Positions 13,574-58,739 of a stretch of 64,000 nucleotides of DNA are shown one piece after another. The stretch is from Escherichia coli. GTDB taxonomy: Bacteria > Pseudomonadota > Gammaproteobacteria > Enterobacterales > Enterobacteriaceae. The stretch lies in assembly GCF_030013595.1 (NCBI RefSeq), contig NZ_CP122768.1; one strand, written 5' to 3'. The position numbers were made by a program, and so were the translations under genes. How positions within the stretch are numbered: the first letter of the stretch is position 1; the number at the start of each line of letters is the position of its first letter. The notes below the pieces were generated by a model, which did no database searches, had not been told where the DNA came from, and saw only the letters and a program-made list of their open reading frames with translations.

Positions 13574-13815
13574 AATGATCCATATTTATATTTTCTTCTC
13601 CAGATTGGCGATGCCAGTTGGCATGTTTTACCTACTTGTCTACATGGTTACTCGTTGGCGAGAACAGAGGCGGAATTGGGTACAATTGTCCGGGAATTAT
13701 TGTTATTTTTTATTGTATTGCCGTGTCGGGTGATAGGGCGTCGAGAATATCGTTGGATCTCGCCAGTGACGTCTGTTTCTGCTACAGTGCCCGTTTTACG
13801 GCAAACGGCTTGGGT

Positions 13816-14811
13816 ATGGCTTCATTAAAGGATGTCGCACGCCTGGCGGGAGTGTCGATGATGACAGTCTCCCGGGTGATGCATAATGCAGAATCTGTGC
13901 GTCCTGCAACGCGTAACCGCGTATTGCAGGCAATCCAGACCCTGAATTATGTTCCTGATCTTTCCGCCCGTAAGATGCGCGCTCAAGGACGTAAGCCGTC
14001 GACTCTCGCCGTGCTGGCGCAGGACACGGCCACCACTCCTTTCTCTGTTGATATTCTGCTTGCCATTGAGCAAACCGCCAGCGAGTTTGGCTGGAATAGT
14101 TTTTTAATCAATATTTTTTCTGAAGATGACGCTGCCCGCGCGGCACGTCAGCTGCTTGCCCACCGTCCGGATGGCATTATCTATACTACAATGGGGCTGC
14201 GACATATCACGCTGCCTGAGTCTCTGTATGGTGAAAATATTGTATTGGCGAACTGTGTGGCGGATGACCCAGCGTTACCCAGTTATATCCCTGATGATTA
14301 CACTGCACAATATGAATCAACACAGCATTTGCTCGCGGCGGGCTATCGTCAACCGTTATGCTTCTGGCTACCGGAAAGTGCGTTGGCAACAGGGTATCGT
14401 CGGCAGGGATTTGAGCAGGCCTGGCGTGATGCTGGACGAGATCTGGCTGAGGTGAAACAATTTCACATGGCAACAGGTGATGATCACTACACCGATCTCG
14501 CAAGTTTACTCAATGCCCACTTCAAATCGGGCAAACCAGATTTTGATGTTCTGATATGTGGTAACGATCGCGCAGCCTTTGTGGCTTATCAGGTTCTTTT
14601 GGCGAAGGGGGTACGTATCCCGAAGGATGTCGCCGTAATGGGCTTTGATAATCTGGTTGGCGTCGGGCATCTGTTTTTACCGCCGCTGACCACAATTCAG
14701 CTTCCACATGACATTATCGGGCGGGAAGCTGCATTGCATATTATTGAAGGTCGTGAAGGGGGAAGAGTGACGCGGATCCCTTGCCCGCTGTTGATCCGTT
14801 GTTCCACCTGA
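13816..14811 (+). CDS. cscR: LacI-family sucrose operon repressor CscR
   Basis: N-terminal HTH MASLKDVARLAGVSMMTVSRVMHN... plus periplasmic-binding-protein-like sugar-binding core; start set at internal ATG 13816. Confidence 0.8.
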   Translation: MASLKDVARLAGVSMMTVSRVMHNAESVRPATRNRVLQAIQTLNYVPDLSARKMRAQGRKPSTLAVLAQDTATTPFSVDILLAIEQTASEFGWNSFLINIFSEDDAARAARQLLAHRPDGIIYTTMGLRHITLPESLYGENIVLANCVADDPALPSYIPDDYTAQYESTQHLLAAGYRQPLCFWLPESALATGYRRQGFEQAWRDAGRDLAEVKQFHMATGDDHYTDLASLLNAHFKSGKPDFDVLICGNDRAAFVAYQVLLAKGVRIPKDVAVMGFDNLVGVGHLFLPPLTTIQLPHDIIGREAALHIIEGREGGRVTRIPCPLLIRCST

Positions 14812-14818
14812 TATTATG

Positions 14819-16252
14819 TTAACCCAGTTGCCAGAGTGCTCCATGTTGCAGCACAGCCACTCCGTGGGAGGCATAGAGCGACAGTTCCCGTTCTTCTGGC
14901 TGCGGATATATTCGGCTACTCATCACCGCCTCCCCGTCGTTAATAAATACTTCCACGGATGATGTATCGATAAATATCCTTAGGGCGAGCATGTCACCCT
15001 GCGGGAGGGGAATACTACGGTAGCCATCTAAATTCTCGTGTGGGTAATACCGCCACAAAACAAGTCGCTCAGATTGGTTATCAATATACAGCCGCATTCC
15101 AGCGCCGAGCTGTAATCCGTAATGTTCGGCATCACTGTTCTTCAGCGCCCACTGCAACTGAATCTCAACTGCTTGCGCGTTTTCCTGCAAAACATATTTA
15201 TTGCTGATTGTGCGGGGAGAGATAGATTGATGCTGCTGGCGTAACGACTCAGCTTCGTGTACCGGGCGTTGTAGGAGTTTGCCATTGCTCTCTGATAGCT
15301 CGCGCGCCAGCGTCATGCAGCCTGCCCAGCCTTCACGTTTTGAGGGCATTGGCGATTCCCACATATCCATCCAGCCGATAACAATACGCCGACCATCCTT
15401 CGCTACAAAGCTTTGTGGTGCATAAAAGTCATGCCCGTTATCAAGTTCAGTAAAATGCCCGGATTGTGCAAAAAGTCGTCCTGGCGACCACATTCCGGGT
15501 ATTACGCCACTTTGAAAGCGATTTCGATAACTGTATCCCTCGGCATTCATTCCCTGCGGGGAAAACATCAGATAATGCTGATCGCCAAGGCTGAAAAAGT
15601 CCGGACATTCCCACATATAGCTTTCACCCGCATCAGCGTGGGCCAGTACGCGATCGAAAGTCCATTCACGCAATGAACTGCCGCGATAAAGCAGGATCTG
15701 CCCCGTGTTGCCTGGGTCTTTCGCCCCGACTACCATCCACCATGTGTCGGCTTCACGCCACACTTTAGGATCGCGGAAGTGCATGATGCCTTCTGGTGGA
15801 GTGAGGATCACACCCTGTTTCTCGAAATGAATACCATCCCGACTGGTAGCCAGACATTGTACTTCGCGAATTGCATCGTCATTACCTGCACCATCGAGCC
15901 AGACGTGTCCGGTGTAGATAAGTGAGAGGACACCATTGTCATCGACAGCACTACCTGAAAAACACCCGTCTTTGTCATTCTCGTCTCCTGGCGCTAGCGC
16001 AATAGGCTCATGCTGCCAGTGGATCATATCGTCGCTGGTGGCATGTCCCCAGTGCATTGGCCCCCAGTGTTCGCTCATCGGGTGATGTTGATAAAACGCG
16101 TGATAACGATCGTTAAACCAGATCAGGCCGTTTGGATCGTTCATCCACCCGGCAGGAGGCGCGAGGTGAAAATGGGGATAGAAAGTGTTACCTCGGCGCT
16201 CGTGAAGTTTTGCTAGTGCGTTTTGCGCCGCATGCAATCGAGATTGCGTCAT
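14819..16252 (-). CDS. cscA: Sucrose-6-phosphate hydrolase / invertase CscA (GH32)
   Basis: GH32 signature WMNDPNGL near N-terminus; ~477 aa. Confidence 0.85.
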   Translation of the reverse strand: MTQSRLHAAQNALAKLHERRGNTFYPHFHLAPPAGWMNDPNGLIWFNDRYHAFYQHHPMSEHWGPMHWGHATSDDMIHWQHEPIALAPGDENDKDGCFSGSAVDDNGVLSLIYTGHVWLDGAGNDDAIREVQCLATSRDGIHFEKQGVILTPPEGIMHFRDPKVWREADTWWMVVGAKDPGNTGQILLYRGSSLREWTFDRVLAHADAGESYMWECPDFFSLGDQHYLMFSPQGMNAEGYSYRNRFQSGVIPGMWSPGRLFAQSGHFTELDNGHDFYAPQSFVAKDGRRIVIGWMDMWESPMPSKREGWAGCMTLARELSESNGKLLQRPVHEAESLRQQHQSISPRTISNKYVLQENAQAVEIQLQWALKNSDAEHYGLQLGAGMRLYIDNQSERLVLWRYYPHENLDGYRSIPLPQGDMLALRIFIDTSSVEVFINDGEAVMSSRIYPQPEERELSLYASHGVAVLQHGALWQLG

Positions 16253-16285
16253 TTTAATCATCCTGGTTAAGCAAATTTGGTGAAT

Positions 16286-16298
16286 TGTTAACGTTAAC
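16286..16298. promoter_or_regulatory. Candidate CscR operator copy 1 (TGTTAACGTTAAC, palindromic core GTTAACGTTAAC)
   Basis: Perfect 12-bp palindrome, present twice in the cscA/cscKB divergent intergenic region. Confidence 0.45.
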
Positions 16299-16349
16299 TT
16301 TTATAAAAATAAAGTCCCTTACTTTCATAAATGCGATGAATATCACAAA

Positions 16350-16362
16350 TGTTAACGTTAAC
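16350..16362. promoter_or_regulatory. Candidate CscR operator copy 2 (TGTTAACGTTAAC)
   Basis: Identical 13-mer 64 bp from copy 1. Confidence 0.45.
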
Positions 16363-16467
16363 TATGACGTTTTGTGATCGAATATGCATGTTTTAGTAAA
16401 TCCATGACGATTTTGCGAAAAAGAGGTTTATCACTATGCGTAAGTCAGATGAATTTAAGGGAAAAAA

Positions 16468-17382
16468 ATGTCAGCCAAAGTATGGGTTTTAGGGGATGCG
16501 GTCGTAGATCTCTTGCCAGAATCAGACGGGCGGCTACTGCCTTGTCCTGGCGGCGCGCCAGCTAACGTTGCGGTGGGAATCGCCAGATTAGGCGGAACAA
16601 GTGGGTTTATAGGTCGGGTCGGTGATGATCCTTTTGGTGCGTTAATGCAAAGAACGCTGCTAACTGAGGGTGTCGATATCACGTATCTGAAGCAAGATGA
16701 ATGGCACCGGACATCCACGGTGCTTGTCGATCTGAATGATCAAGGAGAACGTTCATTTACGTTTATGGTCCGCCCCAGTGCCGATCTTTTTTTAGAGACG
16801 ACAGACTTGCCCTGCTGGCGACATGGCGAATGGTTACATCTCTGTTCAATTGCGTTGTCTGCCGAGCCTTCGCGTACCAGCGCATTTACTGCGATGACGG
16901 CGATCCGGCATGCCGGAGGTTTTGTCAGCTTCGATCCCAATATTCGTGAAGATCTATGGCAAGACGAGCATTTGCTCCGCTTGTGTTTGCGGCAGGCGCT
17001 ACAACTGGCGGATGTCGTCAAGCTCTCGGAAGAAGAATGGCGACTTATCAGTGGAAAAACACAGAACGATCGGGATATATGCGCGCTGGCAAAAGAGTAT
17101 GAGATCGCCATGCTGTTGGTGACTAAAGGTGCAGAAGGGGTGGTGGTCTGTTATCGAGGACAAGTTCACCATTTTGCTGGAATGTCTGTGAATTGTGTCG
17201 ATAGTACTGGGGCGGGAGATGCGTTCGTTGCCGGGTTACTCACAGGTCTGTCCTCTACGGGGTTATCTACAGATGAGAGAGAAATGCGACGAATTATTGA
17301 TCTTGCTCAACGTTGCGGAGCGCTTGCAGTAACGGCGAAAGGGGCGATGACAGCGCTGCCATGTCGACAAGAACTGGAATAG
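16468..17382 (+). CDS. cscK: Fructokinase CscK (PfkB/ribokinase family)
   Basis: 304-aa ORF MSAKVWVLGDAVVDLLPE... with C-terminal GAGDAF motif. Confidence 0.85.
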   Translation: MSAKVWVLGDAVVDLLPESDGRLLPCPGGAPANVAVGIARLGGTSGFIGRVGDDPFGALMQRTLLTEGVDITYLKQDEWHRTSTVLVDLNDQGERSFTFMVRPSADLFLETTDLPCWRHGEWLHLCSIALSAEPSRTSAFTAMTAIRHAGGFVSFDPNIREDLWQDEHLLRLCLRQALQLADVVKLSEEEWRLISGKTQNDRDICALAKEYEIAMLLVTKGAEGVVVCYRGQVHHFAGMSVNCVDSTGAGDAFVAGLLTGLSSTGLSTDEREMRRIIDLAQRCGALAVTAKGAMTALPCRQELE

Positions 17383-17453
17383 TGAGAATTAAACGGCGAA
17401 GTCGCTCTTATCTCTAAATAGGACGTGAATTTTTTAACGACAGGCAGGTAATT

Positions 17454-18701
17454 ATGGCACTGAATATTCCATTCAGAAATGCGTACTATCGTTTGGCATC
17501 CAGTTACTCATTTCTCTTTTTTATTTCCTGGTCGCTGTGGTGGTCGTTATACGCTATTTGGCTGAAAGGACATCTAGGATTAACAGGGACGGAATTAGGT
17601 ACACTTTATTCGGTCAACCAGTTTACCAGCATTCTATTTATGATGTTCTACGGCATCGTTCAGGATAAACTCGGTCTGAAGAAACCGCTCATCTGGTGTA
17701 TGAGTTTCATTCTGGTCTTGACCGGACCGTTTATGATTTACGTTTATGAACCGTTACTGCAAAGCAATTTTTCTGTAGGTCTAATTCTGGGGGCGCTCTT
17801 TTTTGGCCTGGGGTATCTGGCGGGATGCGGTTTGCTTGACAGCTTCACCGAAAAAATGGCGCGAAATTTTCATTTCGAATATGGAACAGCGCGCGCCTGG
17901 GGATCTTTTGGCTATGCTATTGGCGCGTTCTTTGCCGGTATATTTTTTAGTATCAGTCCCCATATCAACTTCTGGTTGGTCTCGCTATTTGGCGCTGTAT
18001 TTATGATGATCAACATGCGTTTTAAAGATAAGGATCACCAGTGCATAGCGGCGGATGCGGGAGGGGTAAAAAAAGAGGATTTTATCGCAGTTTTCAAGGA
18101 TCGAAACTTCTGGGTTTTCGTCATATTTATTGTGGGGACGTGGTCTTTCTATAACATTTTTGATCAACAACTCTTTCCTGTCTTTTATGCAGGTTTATTC
18201 GAATCACACGATGTAGGAACGCGCCTGTATGGTTATCTCAACTCATTCCAGGTGGTACTCGAAGCGCTGTGCATGGCGATTATTCCTTTCTTTGTGAATC
18301 GGGTAGGGCCAAAAAATGCATTACTTATCGGTGTTGTGATTATGGCGTTGCGTATCCTTTCCTGCGCGTTGTTCGTTAACCCCTGGATTATTTCATTAGT
18401 GAAGCTGTTACATGCCATTGAGGTTCCACTTTGTGTCATATCCGTCTTCAAATACAGCGTGGCAAACTTTGATAAGCGCCTGTCGTCGACGATCTTTCTG
18501 ATTGGTTTTCAAATTGCCAGTTCGCTTGGGATTGTGCTGCTTTCAACGCCGACTGGGATACTCTTTGACCACGCAGGCTACCAGACAGTTTTCTTCGCAA
18601 TTTCGGGTATTGTCTGCCTGATGTTGCTATTTGGCATTTTCTTCCTGAGTAAAAAACGCGAGCAAATAGTTATGGAAACGCCTGTACCTTCAGCAATATA
18701 G
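17454..18701 (+). CDS. cscB: Sucrose:H+ symporter CscB (LacY-like MFS)
   Basis: 415-aa 12-TMS ORF; downstream of cscK. Confidence 0.85.
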   Translation: MALNIPFRNAYYRLASSYSFLFFISWSLWWSLYAIWLKGHLGLTGTELGTLYSVNQFTSILFMMFYGIVQDKLGLKKPLIWCMSFILVLTGPFMIYVYEPLLQSNFSVGLILGALFFGLGYLAGCGLLDSFTEKMARNFHFEYGTARAWGSFGYAIGAFFAGIFFSISPHINFWLVSLFGAVFMMINMRFKDKDHQCIAADAGGVKKEDFIAVFKDRNFWVFVIFIVGTWSFYNIFDQQLFPVFYAGLFESHDVGTRLYGYLNSFQVVLEALCMAIIPFFVNRVGPKNALLIGVVIMALRILSCALFVNPWIISLVKLLHAIEVPLCVISVFKYSVANFDKRLSSTIFLIGFQIASSLGIVLLSTPTGILFDHAGYQTVFFAISGIVCLMLLFGIFFLSKKREQIVMETPVPSAI

Positions 18702-19142
18702 ACGTAAACTTTTTCCGGTTGTTGTCGATATCTCCATATCCCTCAACCGGAAAATAATAATACAAAAATGCTTAGCCCAACTAATAATCACCTAATCCAA
18801 ACGCCTCATTCATGTTCTGGTACAGTCGCTCAAATGTACTCCGGATACGCGGTTCGCTGATTTCCAGGACATTGTCGTCATTCAGCGACCTGTCCCGAGT
18901 ATCACGGGCCTGCGAATTCATCAAGGAATGCATTGCAGAGTGAAGTATCGAGTCACGCCATATTTCGCTATCAGGATTCTGTATGATGGTTACATCGCCC
19001 GGCCCAGGGCTGTTTAGTCATCAGCGCTTTCTGACAGTGCTGAGATTTCAACCTGTTGCAGTAAAAATGAGTAGATATAGGGCAAGTGTGCTGCCAAACC
19101 CATCTTTTACGGGGTGAAGGTAGATTTGGTTTGAAGGGTATC

Positions 19143-19157
19143 TGGTGTCCCCTGCAG
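19143..19157. repeat. Prophage attL core: 15-bp direct repeat of the argW 3' end (tggtgtcccctgcag)
   Basis: Exact 15-bp copy of the tRNA 3' terminus found at 58665..58679; phage genes lie between the two copies. Confidence 0.7.
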
Positions 19158-19230
19158 ACATCTACTTGAGGCGGCAGGGGATTGATTGGAATGGTGTTTT
19201 TTAGATGTGAAAAATATTTTACCCGCTATT

Positions 19231-19431
19231 TTACCCATTGGCGCGGCTTAAGAGCTTATTTTTGAATTCACAATGGTCACGATATAACCATCTTGCTCGC
19301 CCGTGGATAACTTTGGCTTTTGGCAGGTCGCCGGACTTAATCCGGTCATAGATGAAGGTTTTACCGAATCCAGTATCGGCCATGATGAATTTCAAATCAA
19401 CCAGTGAATCAGGCTGTAGTTCGTGTTGCAT
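19231..19431 (-). CDS. AlpA-family phage transcriptional regulator / putative excisionase
   Basis: 66-aa ORF with small HTH (…LKFIMADTGFGKTFIYDRIKSGDLPKAK…); adjacent to attL. Confidence 0.55.
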   Translation of the reverse strand: MQHELQPDSLVDLKFIMADTGFGKTFIYDRIKSGDLPKAKVIHGRARWLYRDHCEFKNKLLSRANG

Positions 19432-19473
19432 GAGTGCTATCTCCGAATAGGGAATCGAACCTGCAAATCAGGC

Positions 19474-19498
19474 AATAAAAAACCGCCATCAGGCGGCT
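19474..19498 (-). terminator. Rho-independent terminator (minus strand) between the zinc-ribbon gene and the AlpA-like gene
   Basis: GC hairpin aaccgcc/ggcgg followed by a T-run on the minus strand. Confidence 0.5.
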
Positions 19499-19562
19499 TG
19501 GTGTTCTTTCAGTTCTTCAATTCGAATATTGGTTACATTGTTTTAATATATGAATAAATAAA

Positions 19563-19775
19563 TTAGCTTTTTTCGTTGCCTTCGCGTTCTTTATTAATTT
19601 TAACAAACTCGTTTTTACCACGCTCTCCAAATGCGTCTTTAGAGTCGTTGTATCCGCAATCGCAGCACACATAATCACCAGACCATCCACGCATTGTTTT
19701 TTCTTTTGCAATATTTCCAGAACCGCATTTTGGACAAGACATATCACTACCTCCAAAGCATGAGTGAGATGACAA
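19563..19775 (-). CDS. Small zinc-ribbon protein (CPKC...CCDC)
   Basis: 70-aa ORF with two Cys pairs; the overlapping 126-aa ORF in another frame was judged less likely. Confidence 0.4.
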   Translation of the reverse strand: MSSHSCFGGSDMSCPKCGSGNIAKEKTMRGWSGDYVCCDCGYNDSKDAFGERGKNEFVKINKEREGNEKS

Positions 19776-27838: not shown

Positions 27839-28738
27839 ATGACAAATACAGCAAAAATACTCAACTTCTGCAGAGGTAACTTTGCCGAACAGGAGCGTAA
27901 TGTGGCAGATCTCGATGATGGTTACGCCAGACTATCAAATATGCTGCTTGAGGCTTATTCAGGCGCAGATCTGACCAAGCGACAGTTTAAAGTGCTGCTT
28001 GCCATTCTGCGTAAAACCTATGGGTGGAATAAACCAATGGACAGAATCACCGATTCTCAACTTAGCGAGATTACAAAGTTACCTGTCAAACGGTGCAATG
28101 AAGCCAAGTTAGAGCTCGTCAGAATGAATATTATCAAGCAGCAAGGCGGCATGTTTGGACCAAATAAAAACATCTCAGAATGGTGTATCCCTCAAAACGA
28201 GGGAAAATCCCCTAAAACGAGGGATAAAACATCCCTCAAATTGGGGGATTGCTATCCCTCAAAACAGGGGAACACAAAAGACACTAATACAAAAGAAAAA
28301 AGAAAAGATTATTCGTCAGAGAATTCTGGCGAATCCTCTGACCAGCCAGAAAACGATCTTTCTGTGGTTAAACCGGATGCTGCAATTCAGAGCGGCAGCA
28401 AGTGGGGAACAGCAGAAGACCTGACCGCCGCAGAGTGGATGTTTGACATGGTGAAGACCATCGCGCCATCAGCCAGAAAACCGAATTTTGCTGGGTGGGC
28501 TAACGATATCCGCCTGATGCGTGAACGTGACGGACGTAACCACCGCGATATGTGTGTGCTTTTCCGCTGGGCCTGCCAGGACAACTTCTGGTCCGGTAAC
28601 GTGCTGAGTCCGGCCAAACTCCGCGACAAGTGGACCCAGCTCGAAATCAACCGTAACAAGCAACAGGCAGGCGTGACAGCCAGCAAACCAAAACTCGACC
28701 TGACAAACACTGACTGGATTTACGGGGTGGATTTATGA
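27839..28738 (+). CDS. O: Replication initiator O (lambda-type)
   Basis: 299 aa; four iterons and an AT-rich tract embedded mid-gene; followed by P. Confidence 0.85.
   Translation: MTNTAKILNFCRGNFAEQERNVADLDDGYARLSNMLLEAYSGADLTKRQFKVLLAILRKTYGWNKPMDRITDSQLSEITKLPVKRCNEAKLELVRMNIIKQQGGMFGPNKNISEWCIPQNEGKSPKTRDKTSLKLGDCYPSKQGNTKDTNTKEKRKDYSSENSGESSDQPENDLSVVKPDAAIQSGSKWGTAEDLTAAEWMFDMVKTIAPSARKPNFAGWANDIRLMRERDGRNHRDMCVLFRWACQDNFWSGNVLSPAKLRDKWTQLEINRNKQQAGVTASKPKLDLTNTDWIYGVDL
28187..28310. other. Lambda-type origin of replication: four ~18-bp iterons (ATCCCTCAAAACGAGGGA-like) plus AT-rich tract
   Basis: Iterons at 28187, 28208, 28231 and 28254, followed by an A-rich segment 28272..28310. 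Confidence 0.75.
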
Positions 28739-33950: not shown

Positions 33951-34025
33951 GGGTCAGTCGTATAAAGGTCATTACGGAAGGCTGTTAACCTTCTTATCGT
34001 GGTTCGAGTCCACGCTGTCCCGCCA
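33951..34025 (+). tRNA. Candidate phage-encoded tRNA (anticodon GTT, Asn-like); atypical D-arm and one acceptor-stem mismatch
   Basis: Manual fold: acceptor GGGTCAG/CTGTCCC, anticodon stem GAAGG/CCTTC with loop CTGTTAA, T-arm CGTGG-TTCGAGT-CCACG, 3' GCCA. Confidence 0.45.
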
Positions 34026-34030
34026 AATAT

Positions 34031-34106
34031 GCTGGTTTAGCTCCAATGGTAGAGCGGTCGCCTTGTAAGCGAATGGGTAGCGGTTCAAGTCCGTTAACCA
34101 GCACCA
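34031..34106 (+). tRNA. Candidate phage-encoded tRNA (anticodon TGT, Thr-like)
   Basis: Manual fold: acceptor GCTGGTT/AACCAGC, D-arm GCTC-CAATGGTA-GAGC, anticodon loop CTTGTAA, T-arm AGCGG-TTCAAGT-CCGTT, 3' ACCA. Confidence 0.5.
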
Positions 34107-55376: not shown

Positions 55377-57272
55377 ATGACAGACATTACAGCCAATGTG
55401 ATCGTATCGATGCCTTCGCAACTCTTCACTATGGCGCGTTCTTTTAAAGCCGTAGCCAATGGCAAAATTTATATAGGGAAAATTGACACTGACCCGGTAA
55501 ATCCTGAAAACCAGATTCAGGTTTATGTGGAGAATGAAGATGGCTCTCACGTTCCTGTTTCGCAACCAATAATCATTAACGCTGCCGGATATCCGGTATA
55601 TAACGGACAGATTGCCAAGTTCGTAACTGTGCAAGGCCATTCTATGGCTGTTTATGATGCGTATGGGGCGCAGCAGTTCTATTTTCCTAATGTGCTGAAG
55701 TATGACCCTGACCAATTAAGACAGGAGCTATCTAAGCAGACTGATGGTTATTTTTTTAACCTTCCTCAAGGTGGTGTACTACATGATGCAATAAAGTATG
55801 TAACACCAGAAATGTATATCAATACATCTTCAGATATTACATCTGCTATACAAAGTGCATTTGACAATGGAAATGTGATTGATATGTCAGGTAGAGACTG
55901 GACTCTTGAGAGAACAATCCATGTCGGTGATGGCACTGAAATAAAGTTAGGCGCATCAACAATTACATGTCAACTTGGTTCTAAACCTGCTTTTGACTTT
56001 AGAGGAACAGATAAAGGACTCCTGGTCACAGGAGGTAAGTTTATTGGTAATTGCTCTGCAGTATTTTATTTCCAAGGGACTACTGCTTTCCCTTCTCAAT
56101 CAGGTCACTATGCAAGAAAAATAAGAATATACGGCACAGATGCTACTTCAGATACGGATGAGATAATTGATTTCATCTATATGAAGGACGCTGTAAGGCA
56201 AGTTTTTATTGATTCATGTTATGCATATGTAAAAAACGGCATTACTGCAAGCGGGAAATGTGTGGAGGTGAAAGTCCAAAAAAGCATATTCAACTCAGGA
56301 ACTTCCGATCAAAGTTCTTCTAGGATAAGTCTAAATTCACCGTCAGGAGCAAGTTATTACAACGAAGGTTGGCATTTTAGTGATTGTACAATTGATGGAG
56401 TTGGAAAATCATTTAATGTTACCGATATATATTCGTTAACCATCAATGGAGGATTTATCGGTGGTGAGGTTGCGTTTGGACAGCCAATAACAACACATTG
56501 CCGTGAGATCGTACTCGGTGGTGGATTAATCATGAAAGGGCGTGTTACTTTCACGCCAACCGTACAATATGACTACAGGGCCAACATATCTCCTTCTCTT
56601 ATGTTTGGTAATGGTGGAGTTGGAAACGTGGTCCTTAATGCAGGTGCTTCAGGCATCAACGTTAGCACAAAACTTGAAAGTTCTGGTGTTTCAGGAGGAA
56701 CTGGCGTTATTGTTAATGAAGGATGTTCTAATGTTAACGTTGACCTGAGCGCTGATAATACGTATGAAAGACTGGCGTCATTCAATGGTTACGGACCAAG
56801 GTGTTCCGCTTTGATACGTAACTACATGGGAAGCTCTCACCCAATTTATACAGAGCGACCATTAAAGATTATATCATCGCCTGTCACTGACGACGCTGGT
56901 TCTCTGCAGGTTATGAGTTTTGTAAATATACCAGCAGGAAGCTATATTGTTGGTTCTGTTATGTCTGAGGTGAAAGTGACTGCACCAAAAGGTTCTAGAG
57001 GGAAAATTTCTCTTACCATTTCACTGAGTGGATTAACAGGCACATCTTCACAGGCGCTTATTGTAAATATTCCTGCCGGAATGGTTACCCCATCCGGTTT
57101 AGGTTGGGCTTCAAATGTTATTAGACCTCAGTTTGCGGCTGGAATAATGAGTATTGAAATACCATTTTATACAACCACAGACATTGCAGAATCCTCATTA
57201 TCTGTATCTAATTTCTCAGGAAATACAGCAATTGTTGGACTAAACTCTTACATTGGATATTTTTTGATATGA
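55377..57272 (+). CDS. Tailspike protein: conserved P22/Sf6/HK620-type head-binding domain + divergent beta-helix receptor-binding domain
   Basis: N-terminal ~113 aa [60 protein letters not shown]...VLKYDPDQ; remainder Gly/Ser/Thr/Asn-rich and repetitive. Confidence 0.85.
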
Positions 57273-57348: not shown

Positions 57349-58539
57349 TTATTCATTTTCATCAAGCCAGTCCGCCCACCACTGCATCATTTCTCTGCGC
57401 TTGTCTAGATACTGAGCATGGTTGTAAATCCCACGCACAGATCCGCCGTTGGCATGTGCCAGTTGCACTTCAATAGCGTCAGCAGGCCATTCGTGCTCGT
57501 TCATAATTGTGCTGAATTCATGCCTGAATCCGTGACCGCTTTCCAGACCCTCATAGCCGATTTGTTTGATCACAAGCAATACCGCGTTCTCGCAGATTGG
57601 CTTCTTCTTATCGTTGCGCCCTGCAAAAACAAACTCTGATACTGGTTTGGTGATGGAGCTTAACGTAGTGAGAAGTTCAACCACCTGGTCTGACATCGGG
57701 ACCACATGAATTTTGCGTCCCTTCATCACGCTGGCGTCGATGGTGATAATCCTGTTTTCAAAATCGACGTTCTTCCATTGCATGGAGCGAAGCTCTTTCG
57801 TTCTTAGGGCTGTATAACGTAAAACTTTTGTCGCAATAAGCGATACGATACTTCCTGAAAATGTTGCCAGTGCTTTGTTGAATGCCGGGATCTGGTCTGC
57901 AGGAAGAAACGGGAAGTTCTTCTTGCGGTATCCTTTCATGGCGTCTGCAAGGTCAGGTGCCGGGTTATATTTAGCCCTTCCGGTGACAATAGCGTAACGG
58001 AAAACCTCTCCGCATCTTCTGCGGGCTTTGTTGGCTCGCTCCATTGCACCGCGATCTTCAAACCTGCGGATTACTTCAAGAAGTTGCATCGGCTCAATAT
58101 CCTGAATTTCAAGACCGCCGATGATGGGTAAAATGTCGTCATCAAACATTTTGGCAAGTTCAGTCGCATACCCTACAGACCAGACTTGCTTCTTGTGCTC
58201 GTACCATTCCTTGTAAATGGCGCTAAAGGAATTGTTGTTAGACGAAGCCTTTTTCGCTTTTACCGGATCGATGCCAACCGAGATGTCTTTCCTCGCAGTC
58301 CATGCTTTATCCCTTGCCTCTTGCAAAGTCATAAGCGGATATTTTCCGACGGTCAGGATTTTCTCCTTACCGTCAATCTTGTAGCGAAGCTGCCATACCT
58401 TTTTCCCGGATACAGGGACATAAAGGTACAATCCATTACCATCGAGAAGGCGGTATGGTTTTTCTTTCGGCTTTGCTGCTTCAATCTGCTTAACGGTGAG
58501 CATGGGTAAAAATCCGGTGGGTAAAATTATTTTATCCAC
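57349..58539 (-). CDS. intS: Tyrosine integrase, P4-type (IntS-like); start possibly at internal Met 58503
   Basis: ...MLTVKQIEAAKPKEKPYRLLDGNGLYLYV... with C-terminal catalytic region (HGFRH ... Y); directly adjacent to argW. Confidence 0.9.
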   Translation of the reverse strand: MDKIILPTGFLPMLTVKQIEAAKPKEKPYRLLDGNGLYLYVPVSGKKVWQLRYKIDGKEKILTVGKYPLMTLQEARDKAWTARKDISVGIDPVKAKKASSNNNSFSAIYKEWYEHKKQVWSVGYATELAKMFDDDILPIIGGLEIQDIEPMQLLEVIRRFEDRGAMERANKARRRCGEVFRYAIVTGRAKYNPAPDLADAMKGYRKKNFPFLPADQIPAFNKALATFSGSIVSLIATKVLRYTALRTKELRSMQWKNVDFENRIITIDASVMKGRKIHVVPMSDQVVELLTTLSSITKPVSEFVFAGRNDKKKPICENAVLLVIKQIGYEGLESGHGFRHEFSTIMNEHEWPADAIEVQLAHANGGSVRGIYNHAQYLDKRREMMQWWADWLDENE

Positions 58540-58664: not shown

Positions 58665-58679
58665 TGGTGTCCCCTGCAG
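58665..58679. repeat. Prophage attR core: 15-bp direct repeat (tggtgtcccctgcag) within the argW 3' end
   Basis: Exact copy of 19143..19157. Confidence 0.7.
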
Positions 58680-58739
58680 GAATCGAACCTGCAATTAGCC
58701 CTTAGGAGGGGCTCGTTATATCCATTTAACTAAGAGGAC
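58665..58739 (-). tRNA. argW: tRNA-Arg (anticodon CCU), argW; prophage attR at its 3' end
   Basis: Reverse complement reads GTCCTCTTAGTTAAATGGATATAACGAGCCCCTCCTAAGGGCTAATTGCAGGTTCGATTCCTGCAGGGGACACCA. Confidence 0.9.

Follow-up and report, generated by a model that had tools for sequence, protein, structure and literature searches.

The region next to the tRNA gene argW is a well-known hot spot of the Escherichia coli chromosome. In the accessible literature on this variable locus, the sucrose genes cscRAKB are described as replacing dsdC and part of dsdX (PMC13054288, PMC11251922, PMC3032704, PMC7486766, citing Jahreis et al. 2002 and Moritz & Welch 2006), and argW is named as a frequent site of phage integration (PMC13054288, PMC11251922, PMC3032704). 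No description of the spacer between cscB and argW is contained in that literature, from which the primary reports of Jahreis et al. 2002 and Moritz & Welch 2006 stand apart. In E. coli K-12, which carries the dsd haplotype, pawZ is followed by approximately 95 bp and then by dsdC; pawZ represents the attR of the K-12 prophage CPS-53/KplE1, where torI is located beside a 15-nt repeat of argW. Another relevant system is that of the CP4-type islands. In three E. coli contexts, the gene for a full-length DUF4942 protein follows genes for DUF932, antirestriction, JAB/RadC, DUF987, YeeU (CbeA), CbtA, DUF5983, and DUF957 proteins, with YeeU being the antitoxin and CbtA the toxin of the module, and in two of the three cases the distance from the DUF4942 gene to a tRNA gene (tRNA-Ile, tRNA-Ser) is no more than 100-150 bp.

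The window analyzed here, a stretch of 64,000 nucleotides of E. coli DNA (NZ_CP122768.1), resembles the published argW-dsdCXA/cscRAKB region in that cscRAKB adjoins argW and displaces dsdC and the 5' part of dsdX. It also shares with CPS-53/KplE1 the same 15-nt core at the torI-side boundary of a prophage. Unlike in K-12, a segment of 441 bp (18702..19142) is interposed between cscB and this core. A counterpart of the segment is missing from K-12, with no homology to the pawZ-dsdC spacer being found by blastn, and homology of the window to K-12 begins only at 19143, from where it is 97.5% identical to the pawZ-torI region up to 19260; thus, it is precisely at the argW 3' end that the csc haplotype parts from the dsd haplotype. 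Once the prophage of approximately 39.5 kb (19158-58664) is removed, argW is the true neighbour of the segment, and in prophage-free strains argW itself starts at the position of the att copy. The segment is very probably a non-functional composite scar, in which the tail of the csc cassette adjoins a decayed internal fragment of a DUF4942 gene; this fragment and the DNA between it and argW would most likely be what is left of an old CP4-type island. Its significance is small; it is an ordinary junction scar beside the sucrose genes. The features of the locus are compiled in the table.

Features of the cscB-argW segment and of the adjoining prophage ends (positions in the window)
Feature	Position	Strand	Basis and remarks
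cscB	17454..18701	+	TAG stop codon at 18699-18701
Putative csc cassette 3' flank	18702..~18785	+	directly after cscB stop; Citrobacter homology
Hairpin	18711..18754	+	11-bp perfect stem TTTTCCGGTTG / CAACCGGAAAA enclosing inner 5-bp stem
ATG ORF	18781..18933	-	50 aa; peptide quoted by the initial annotation
DUF4942 pseudogene remnant	18790..19087	-	frameshifted; aa ~38-151 of 281-aa protein; blastn, tblastx, tblastn against L004 6600..7445
No recognisable origin	19088..19142	.	55 bp adjoining argW; 65-bp query and K-12/DUF4942 comparison
15-nt att core copy (K-12 pawZ equivalent)	19143..19157	+	identical to argW 58665-58679; prophage boundary, outside the segment
torI	19231..19431	-	near segment-side att copy
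IntS-like integrase gene	57349..58539	-	beside argW
argW, tRNA-Arg(CCU)	58665..58739	-	ARAGORN

Composition of the segment

The segment starts directly after the stop codon of cscB and ends where the 15-nt copy of the argW 3' end, TGGTGTCCCCTGCAG, begins. These limits agree exactly with those given in the initial annotation, which had called the adjoining att site attL; as the torI-side copy, it corresponds to attR (the pawZ equivalent) in the CPS-53/KplE1 convention of K-12. The further claim that the segment is devoid of ORFs of at least 60 aa holds as well, since the longest ORFs starting from ATG, GTG, or TTG within 18702..19142 comprise 50, 44, and 43 aa. The minus-strand peptide that had been quoted as a frame of 55 codons does exist, but its length is 50 aa, the higher value being a miscount; without the requirement for a start codon, the frame is open for 78 codons, up to 19017. 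An ORF of this size in 441 bp would be meaningless by itself, and it is the homology to DUF4942 that is well beyond chance.

The 78-codon frame matches the Pfam family DUF4942 (PF13708) with a score of 38.3 bits (E=1.5e-9), which exceeds the gathering threshold of 25 bits. Of the 190 profile positions, positions 5-62 are covered, which is under a third of the domain, versus positions 1-190 in the full-length E. coli protein of 281 aa, in which the domain corresponds to residues 87-276. In a tblastn comparison with that protein (E=1e-19), residues 76-151 are matched at 50% identity in one frame (18790-19017), while residues 38-70 are matched in a different frame that contains two stop codons (18978-19076). 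At the nucleotide level, two blocks are aligned by blastn with the full-length gene at locus L004, namely, 18798-18999 at 75% identity (203 nt, E=9e-34) and 19027-19076 at 80% identity, with approximately 54 nt deleted between them. With the profile covered in part only, a frameshift, stop codons, and strain-specific nonsense codons, the segment does not contain a complete DUF4942 domain in an intact ORF. The remnant is an internal, N-proximal piece from which ~37 residues at the N terminus and ~130 at the C terminus are missing, so that of the initially proposed C-terminal gene fragment the gene fragment stands and the C-terminal position does not. The stop codon of the ORF (18781-18783) is found just beyond the point where the DUF4942 alignment ends (codon at 18790), which is also where the csc flank is joined. 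It arises where the DUF4942 frame enters that flank, which makes the apparent C terminus of the ORF an artefact of the junction. In many genomes, the RefSeq annotation (PGAP) lists 18781..18963 as a 60-aa "DUF4942 domain-containing protein" (35.6 bits to PF13708). The feature is ordinary and carries an annotation in thousands of RefSeq genomes, and the entries of 50 or 60 aa should be treated as pseudogene fragments.

The sequence identity over the matched part of the remnant is one likeness to the DUF4942 genes of CP4-type islands; another one is the position within approximately 60 bp of the 3' end of a tRNA gene, given that 55 bp separate the remnant from argW in prophage-free strains. It differs from those genes by its truncation, frameshift, stop codons, and deletion and in that no close intact relative is present in the databases searched. 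A word-indexed protein search with the 78-aa frame returned only the same short E. coli fragments, and among 1.84 billion cluster representatives searched with HMMER the best full-length-like match was 53% identical, with none exceeding ~55%. For this reason, no donor island can be named. An exact 19-mer from the remnant had 0 matches in 100,044 species-representative genomes. The 55 bp between the remnant and the att copy match neither the K-12 pawZ-dsdC spacer nor the 5' end of the DUF4942 gene. When a 65-bp query including them (19078-19142) was compared with all E. coli genomes, matches were obtained in 2630 genomes, all with at least 90% identity and with no weaker or other copies, a number close to the 2644 genomes in which the entire segment is present.

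The opposite end of the segment is homologous to Citrobacter DNA. In Citrobacter amalonaticus and C. sedlakii, the sequence downstream of cscB is 80-84% identical to 18702-18769 (blastn), so that in csc-positive Citrobacter the homology of the csc genes to E. coli, which is of the same degree, runs past cscB through 18769. Beyond this point, a weaker resemblance is suggested by the alignment as far as ~18785, where it reaches the first codons of a Citrobacter gene for a methyl-accepting chemotaxis protein (MCP). A 19-mer from the hairpin region matched the same two species among the species-representative genomes. In csc-negative Citrobacter, the same hairpin and leader are found upstream of the MCP gene, preceded by a different gene, from which it follows that the element is native to the Citrobacter MCP locus. 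The simplest reading would be that the hairpin-leader sequence after E. coli cscB is a donor flank carried along with the cassette, and this Citrobacter-like 3' flank hints at the source of the E. coli csc genes. Co-inheritance with cscB across genera is confined to 18702-18769(-85), the rest of the segment being specific to E. coli. In the ETEC strain L7_E1373, only 18702-18778 is kept beside cscB, with an ISEc46 element shortly after it.

The hairpin has a minimum free energy of -19.4 kcal/mol (z=-3.63 versus shuffled sequences), and its stems are invariant in five E. coli haplotypes and four Citrobacter loci. It is followed by UAAUAAUAC, without a U-run, and the terminator scan made no call there. 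The hairpin may form a 3'-end structure of the cscB transcript that at most helps to end or stabilise it; its perfect preservation between genera makes some function possible. In Citrobacter, with or without csc, the hairpin is located approximately 10 nt upstream of the MCP gene (L013 1592-1660, L020 3510-3580, L021 1045-1115), where it might act as a leader or as an element sequestering the ribosome-binding site. A further csc cassette, 95% identical to 13706-18734 of the window, is found in Escherichia sp. MOD1-EC7003 (L015 61-5088). It has another chromosomal context, adjoining an lpxL-like acyltransferase gene and not dsdX, and the contig ends inside the hairpin region.

Linkage with csc and origin of the junction

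Megablast located the segment in 2644 of the 5426 complete E. coli genomes, in each case on the chromosome, and the last 441 bp of cscB are present in 2645 of them. The segment is found in every sucrose-positive E. coli, and its linkage with csc is 1:1. In strain 746, a 100% identical segment fills the space from the cscB stop codon to argW, without a prophage, and the segment of strain AR_0014 likewise leads directly from cscB to argW. The gene order at these two prophage-free loci (L001, L002) is dsdA, truncated dsdX, cscR, cscA, cscK, cscB, segment, argW, yfdC, with dsdA being intact. The segment is therefore to be assigned to the csc haplotype at the argW-dsd hot spot and not to the prophage.

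The junction is composite. The ~70-85 bp at the cscB end, hairpin included, would be the tail of the imported csc cassette, and they are joined at ~18785-18790 to an internal, frameshifted DUF4942 piece of approximately 300 bp; the 50-aa ORF is what stays open of this piece, with its stop codon at the junction. The remnant, together with the 55 bp next to argW, would most likely represent the remains of a CP4-type island once located at the argW 3' end, which would have lost nearly everything by deletion, while the distal part of the island, along with dsdC and the 5' part of dsdX, would have been replaced by the csc cassette. An old island of this type is the most likely source because DUF4942 genes end island modules and are absent from genuine phages and because the haplotypes split at the argW 3' end. 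The initial annotation had proposed a junction left by the csc insertion or by an older integration event at argW; csc acquisition is supported by the present data, and an older mobile element at argW is probable. The opposite case, as formulated there, was a conserved intergenic block of prophage-free strains lacking gene homology. The segment is indeed such a block, but homology to a gene is present, and the junction interpretation is not refuted.

Against the island origin speaks that the argW locus has retained neither an integrase nor a second att repeat nor any further gene of an island and that the orientation of DUF4942 genes towards tRNA genes is not uniform. Between cscB and argW of the two prophage-free loci, neither a P4-like integrase gene nor genes for DUF932, antirestriction, YeeU/CbtA, or DUF957 proteins were found, and the only integrase near the segment is the IntS-like one of the prophage. 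A search of the window for a distal argW repeat, using the 16-mer TGGTGTCCCCTGCAGG with up to 3 mismatches, returned only argW and the prophage att copy. In ETEC1746, the 3' end of the DUF4942 gene faces tRNA-Ser, while here the 5' end of the remnant faces argW. The orientation of the remnant as a guide to the island end was dropped on these grounds.

DUF4942-remnant loci with at least 90% identity are confined to approximately 2630 genomes, which is close to the csc count, and all loci inspected are csc-positive; hence, the remnant could have been imported together with csc instead of having been resident first. In that case, the whole 441 bp, DUF4942 fragment included, would have come with csc from a donor or an intermediate mobile element, and no island would ever have been present at argW of E. 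coli. The nearly identical counts of segment and csc would be expected as well. However, in Citrobacter it is the MCP gene and not a DUF4942 gene that comes after the hairpin, with the homology to E. coli ending at ~18769-18785, and the difference between the csc and dsd haplotypes from the exact 3' end of argW fits integrase-mediated entry at this site. The csc cassette of MOD1-EC7003 is at a different locus, and its contig, which stops at the equivalent of 18734, is uninformative on the remnant. Altogether, import of the entire segment with csc is considered rather unlikely.

Returning to the composite scar, a more detailed course of events may tentatively be envisaged, although it is doubtful as a whole. 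The scar would record the gain of sucrose utilization by E. coli: a Citrobacter-like csc cassette with ~70-85 bp of chemoreceptor leader might have inserted into the DUF4942 gene that ended a CP4-type island at argW, this island might then have been deleted nearly completely, and the resulting haplotype might have spread through the phylogroups by recombination, thereby displacing dsdC and part of dsdX.

Decay of the remnant

Five diverse haplotypes of the segment were compared. The 78-codon frame contains nonsense codons in two of them (AR_0014, AST85), and two indels, one of 6 bp and one of 2 bp, are located upstream of it. Distinct substitutions are spread over codon positions 1, 2, and 3 in a ratio of 10:13:12, and nonsynonymous substitutions exceed synonymous ones in the three most diverged comparisons, but not in AR_0014. 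When the same strains are compared, the divergence of the segment is 2-3 times that of cscB (3.9% versus 1.2%, 6.8% versus 2.2%, and 9.8% versus 4.3%). At a level of at least 99% identity, the segment is found in 361 genomes, compared with 1942 for the 3' end of cscB. This pattern indicates neutral decay of the remnant.

It has to be considered that the ORF of 50-60 aa encodes a functional small protein or that the segment is a regulatory RNA, given that the ORF is intact in many strains and annotated in RefSeq, and that the segment is kept at 90-100% identity in ~2600 genomes. For a small protein, the nonsense codons, the even spread over the codon positions, and the excess of nonsynonymous substitutions (AR_0014 excepted) are at variance with this view, as is the size of the ORF, which amounts to less than a third of the DUF4942 domain. 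Concerning both a protein and an RNA, the segment diverges faster than the neighbouring genes; no promoter-like site was detected within it, the terminator-like sites all being outside, and a scan of 18500-19600 against Rfam at E values up to 1 gave nothing inside the segment. Either function is thus highly improbable. The suspicious-looking gap is thereby cleared as a fixed, neutrally decaying junction of the csc/dsd/argW hot spot, with no hidden gene or RNA.

The adjoining prophage and its attachment site

A derivation of the segment from the neighbouring P22-like prophage, or from a former argW phage resembling KplE1/CPS-53, is scarcely conceivable: it abuts the prophage att site and is contained in four GenBank "phage genome" records, but these same records also carry cscA, cscK, and cscB and, thus, include chromosomal flank, prophage-free strains carry the segment as well, with 100% identity in one of them, homology to K-12 CPS-53 starts only at the att copy, and the fragment has neither a genuine phage record (tblastn) nor a PHROG family. 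The segment is unrelated to the adjacent prophage. The matches obtained in phage collections consisted of the four csc-bearing records plus one Salmonella chromosomal contig, upon which a phage origin was rejected. The full-length DUF4942 protein matches three PHROG families, one of which is annotated as DNA methyltransferase. The exact boundary at 19142/19143 helps to delimit prophages at argW.

The four records in question, ON470589.1 (L008 1-4323), ON470594.1, ON470608.1, and ON470622.1, are each designated as a complete phage genome, with chromosomal flank taken in at delimitation, so that the DNA of the segment is wrongly included in them. PMC11251922 mentions "four examples in coliphage genomes" of the csc locus, by which these records are probably meant.

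The prophage, which has a 15-nt argW repeat at either end, encodes a tailspike with a P22-type N terminus (55377..57272) and carries tRNA-Asn and tRNA-Thr genes (33951-34106) as well as three iteron-like 20-mers at 28186-28272. In the O157:H7 strain SS52 (L009 3442-4224), neither argW nor a P22-like prophage comes after the segment but a degenerate att copy, TGGTGTCCC-TGCAGGAAT, and then another element, with a "recombinase family protein" gene at its start.

At 19451-19466, 20 bp upstream of the torI start, the 16-nt sequence GGAATCGAACCTGCAA is identical to argW 58679-58694, which adjoins the 15-nt att core. The arrangement resembles a 30-nt argW 3' fragment that is split by a 293-bp torI cassette. 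Both K-12 CPS-53 and a P22-like phage record share this conserved 16-nt sequence, which identifies it as part of the torI/attR module. In the same region, at 19381-19508 on the plus strand, Rfam gave a sub-threshold match to the Salmonella sRNA STnc130 (25 bits versus a gathering score of 55, E=0.29), which spans the 5' end of torI and a bidirectional terminator-like hairpin at 19480-19499.
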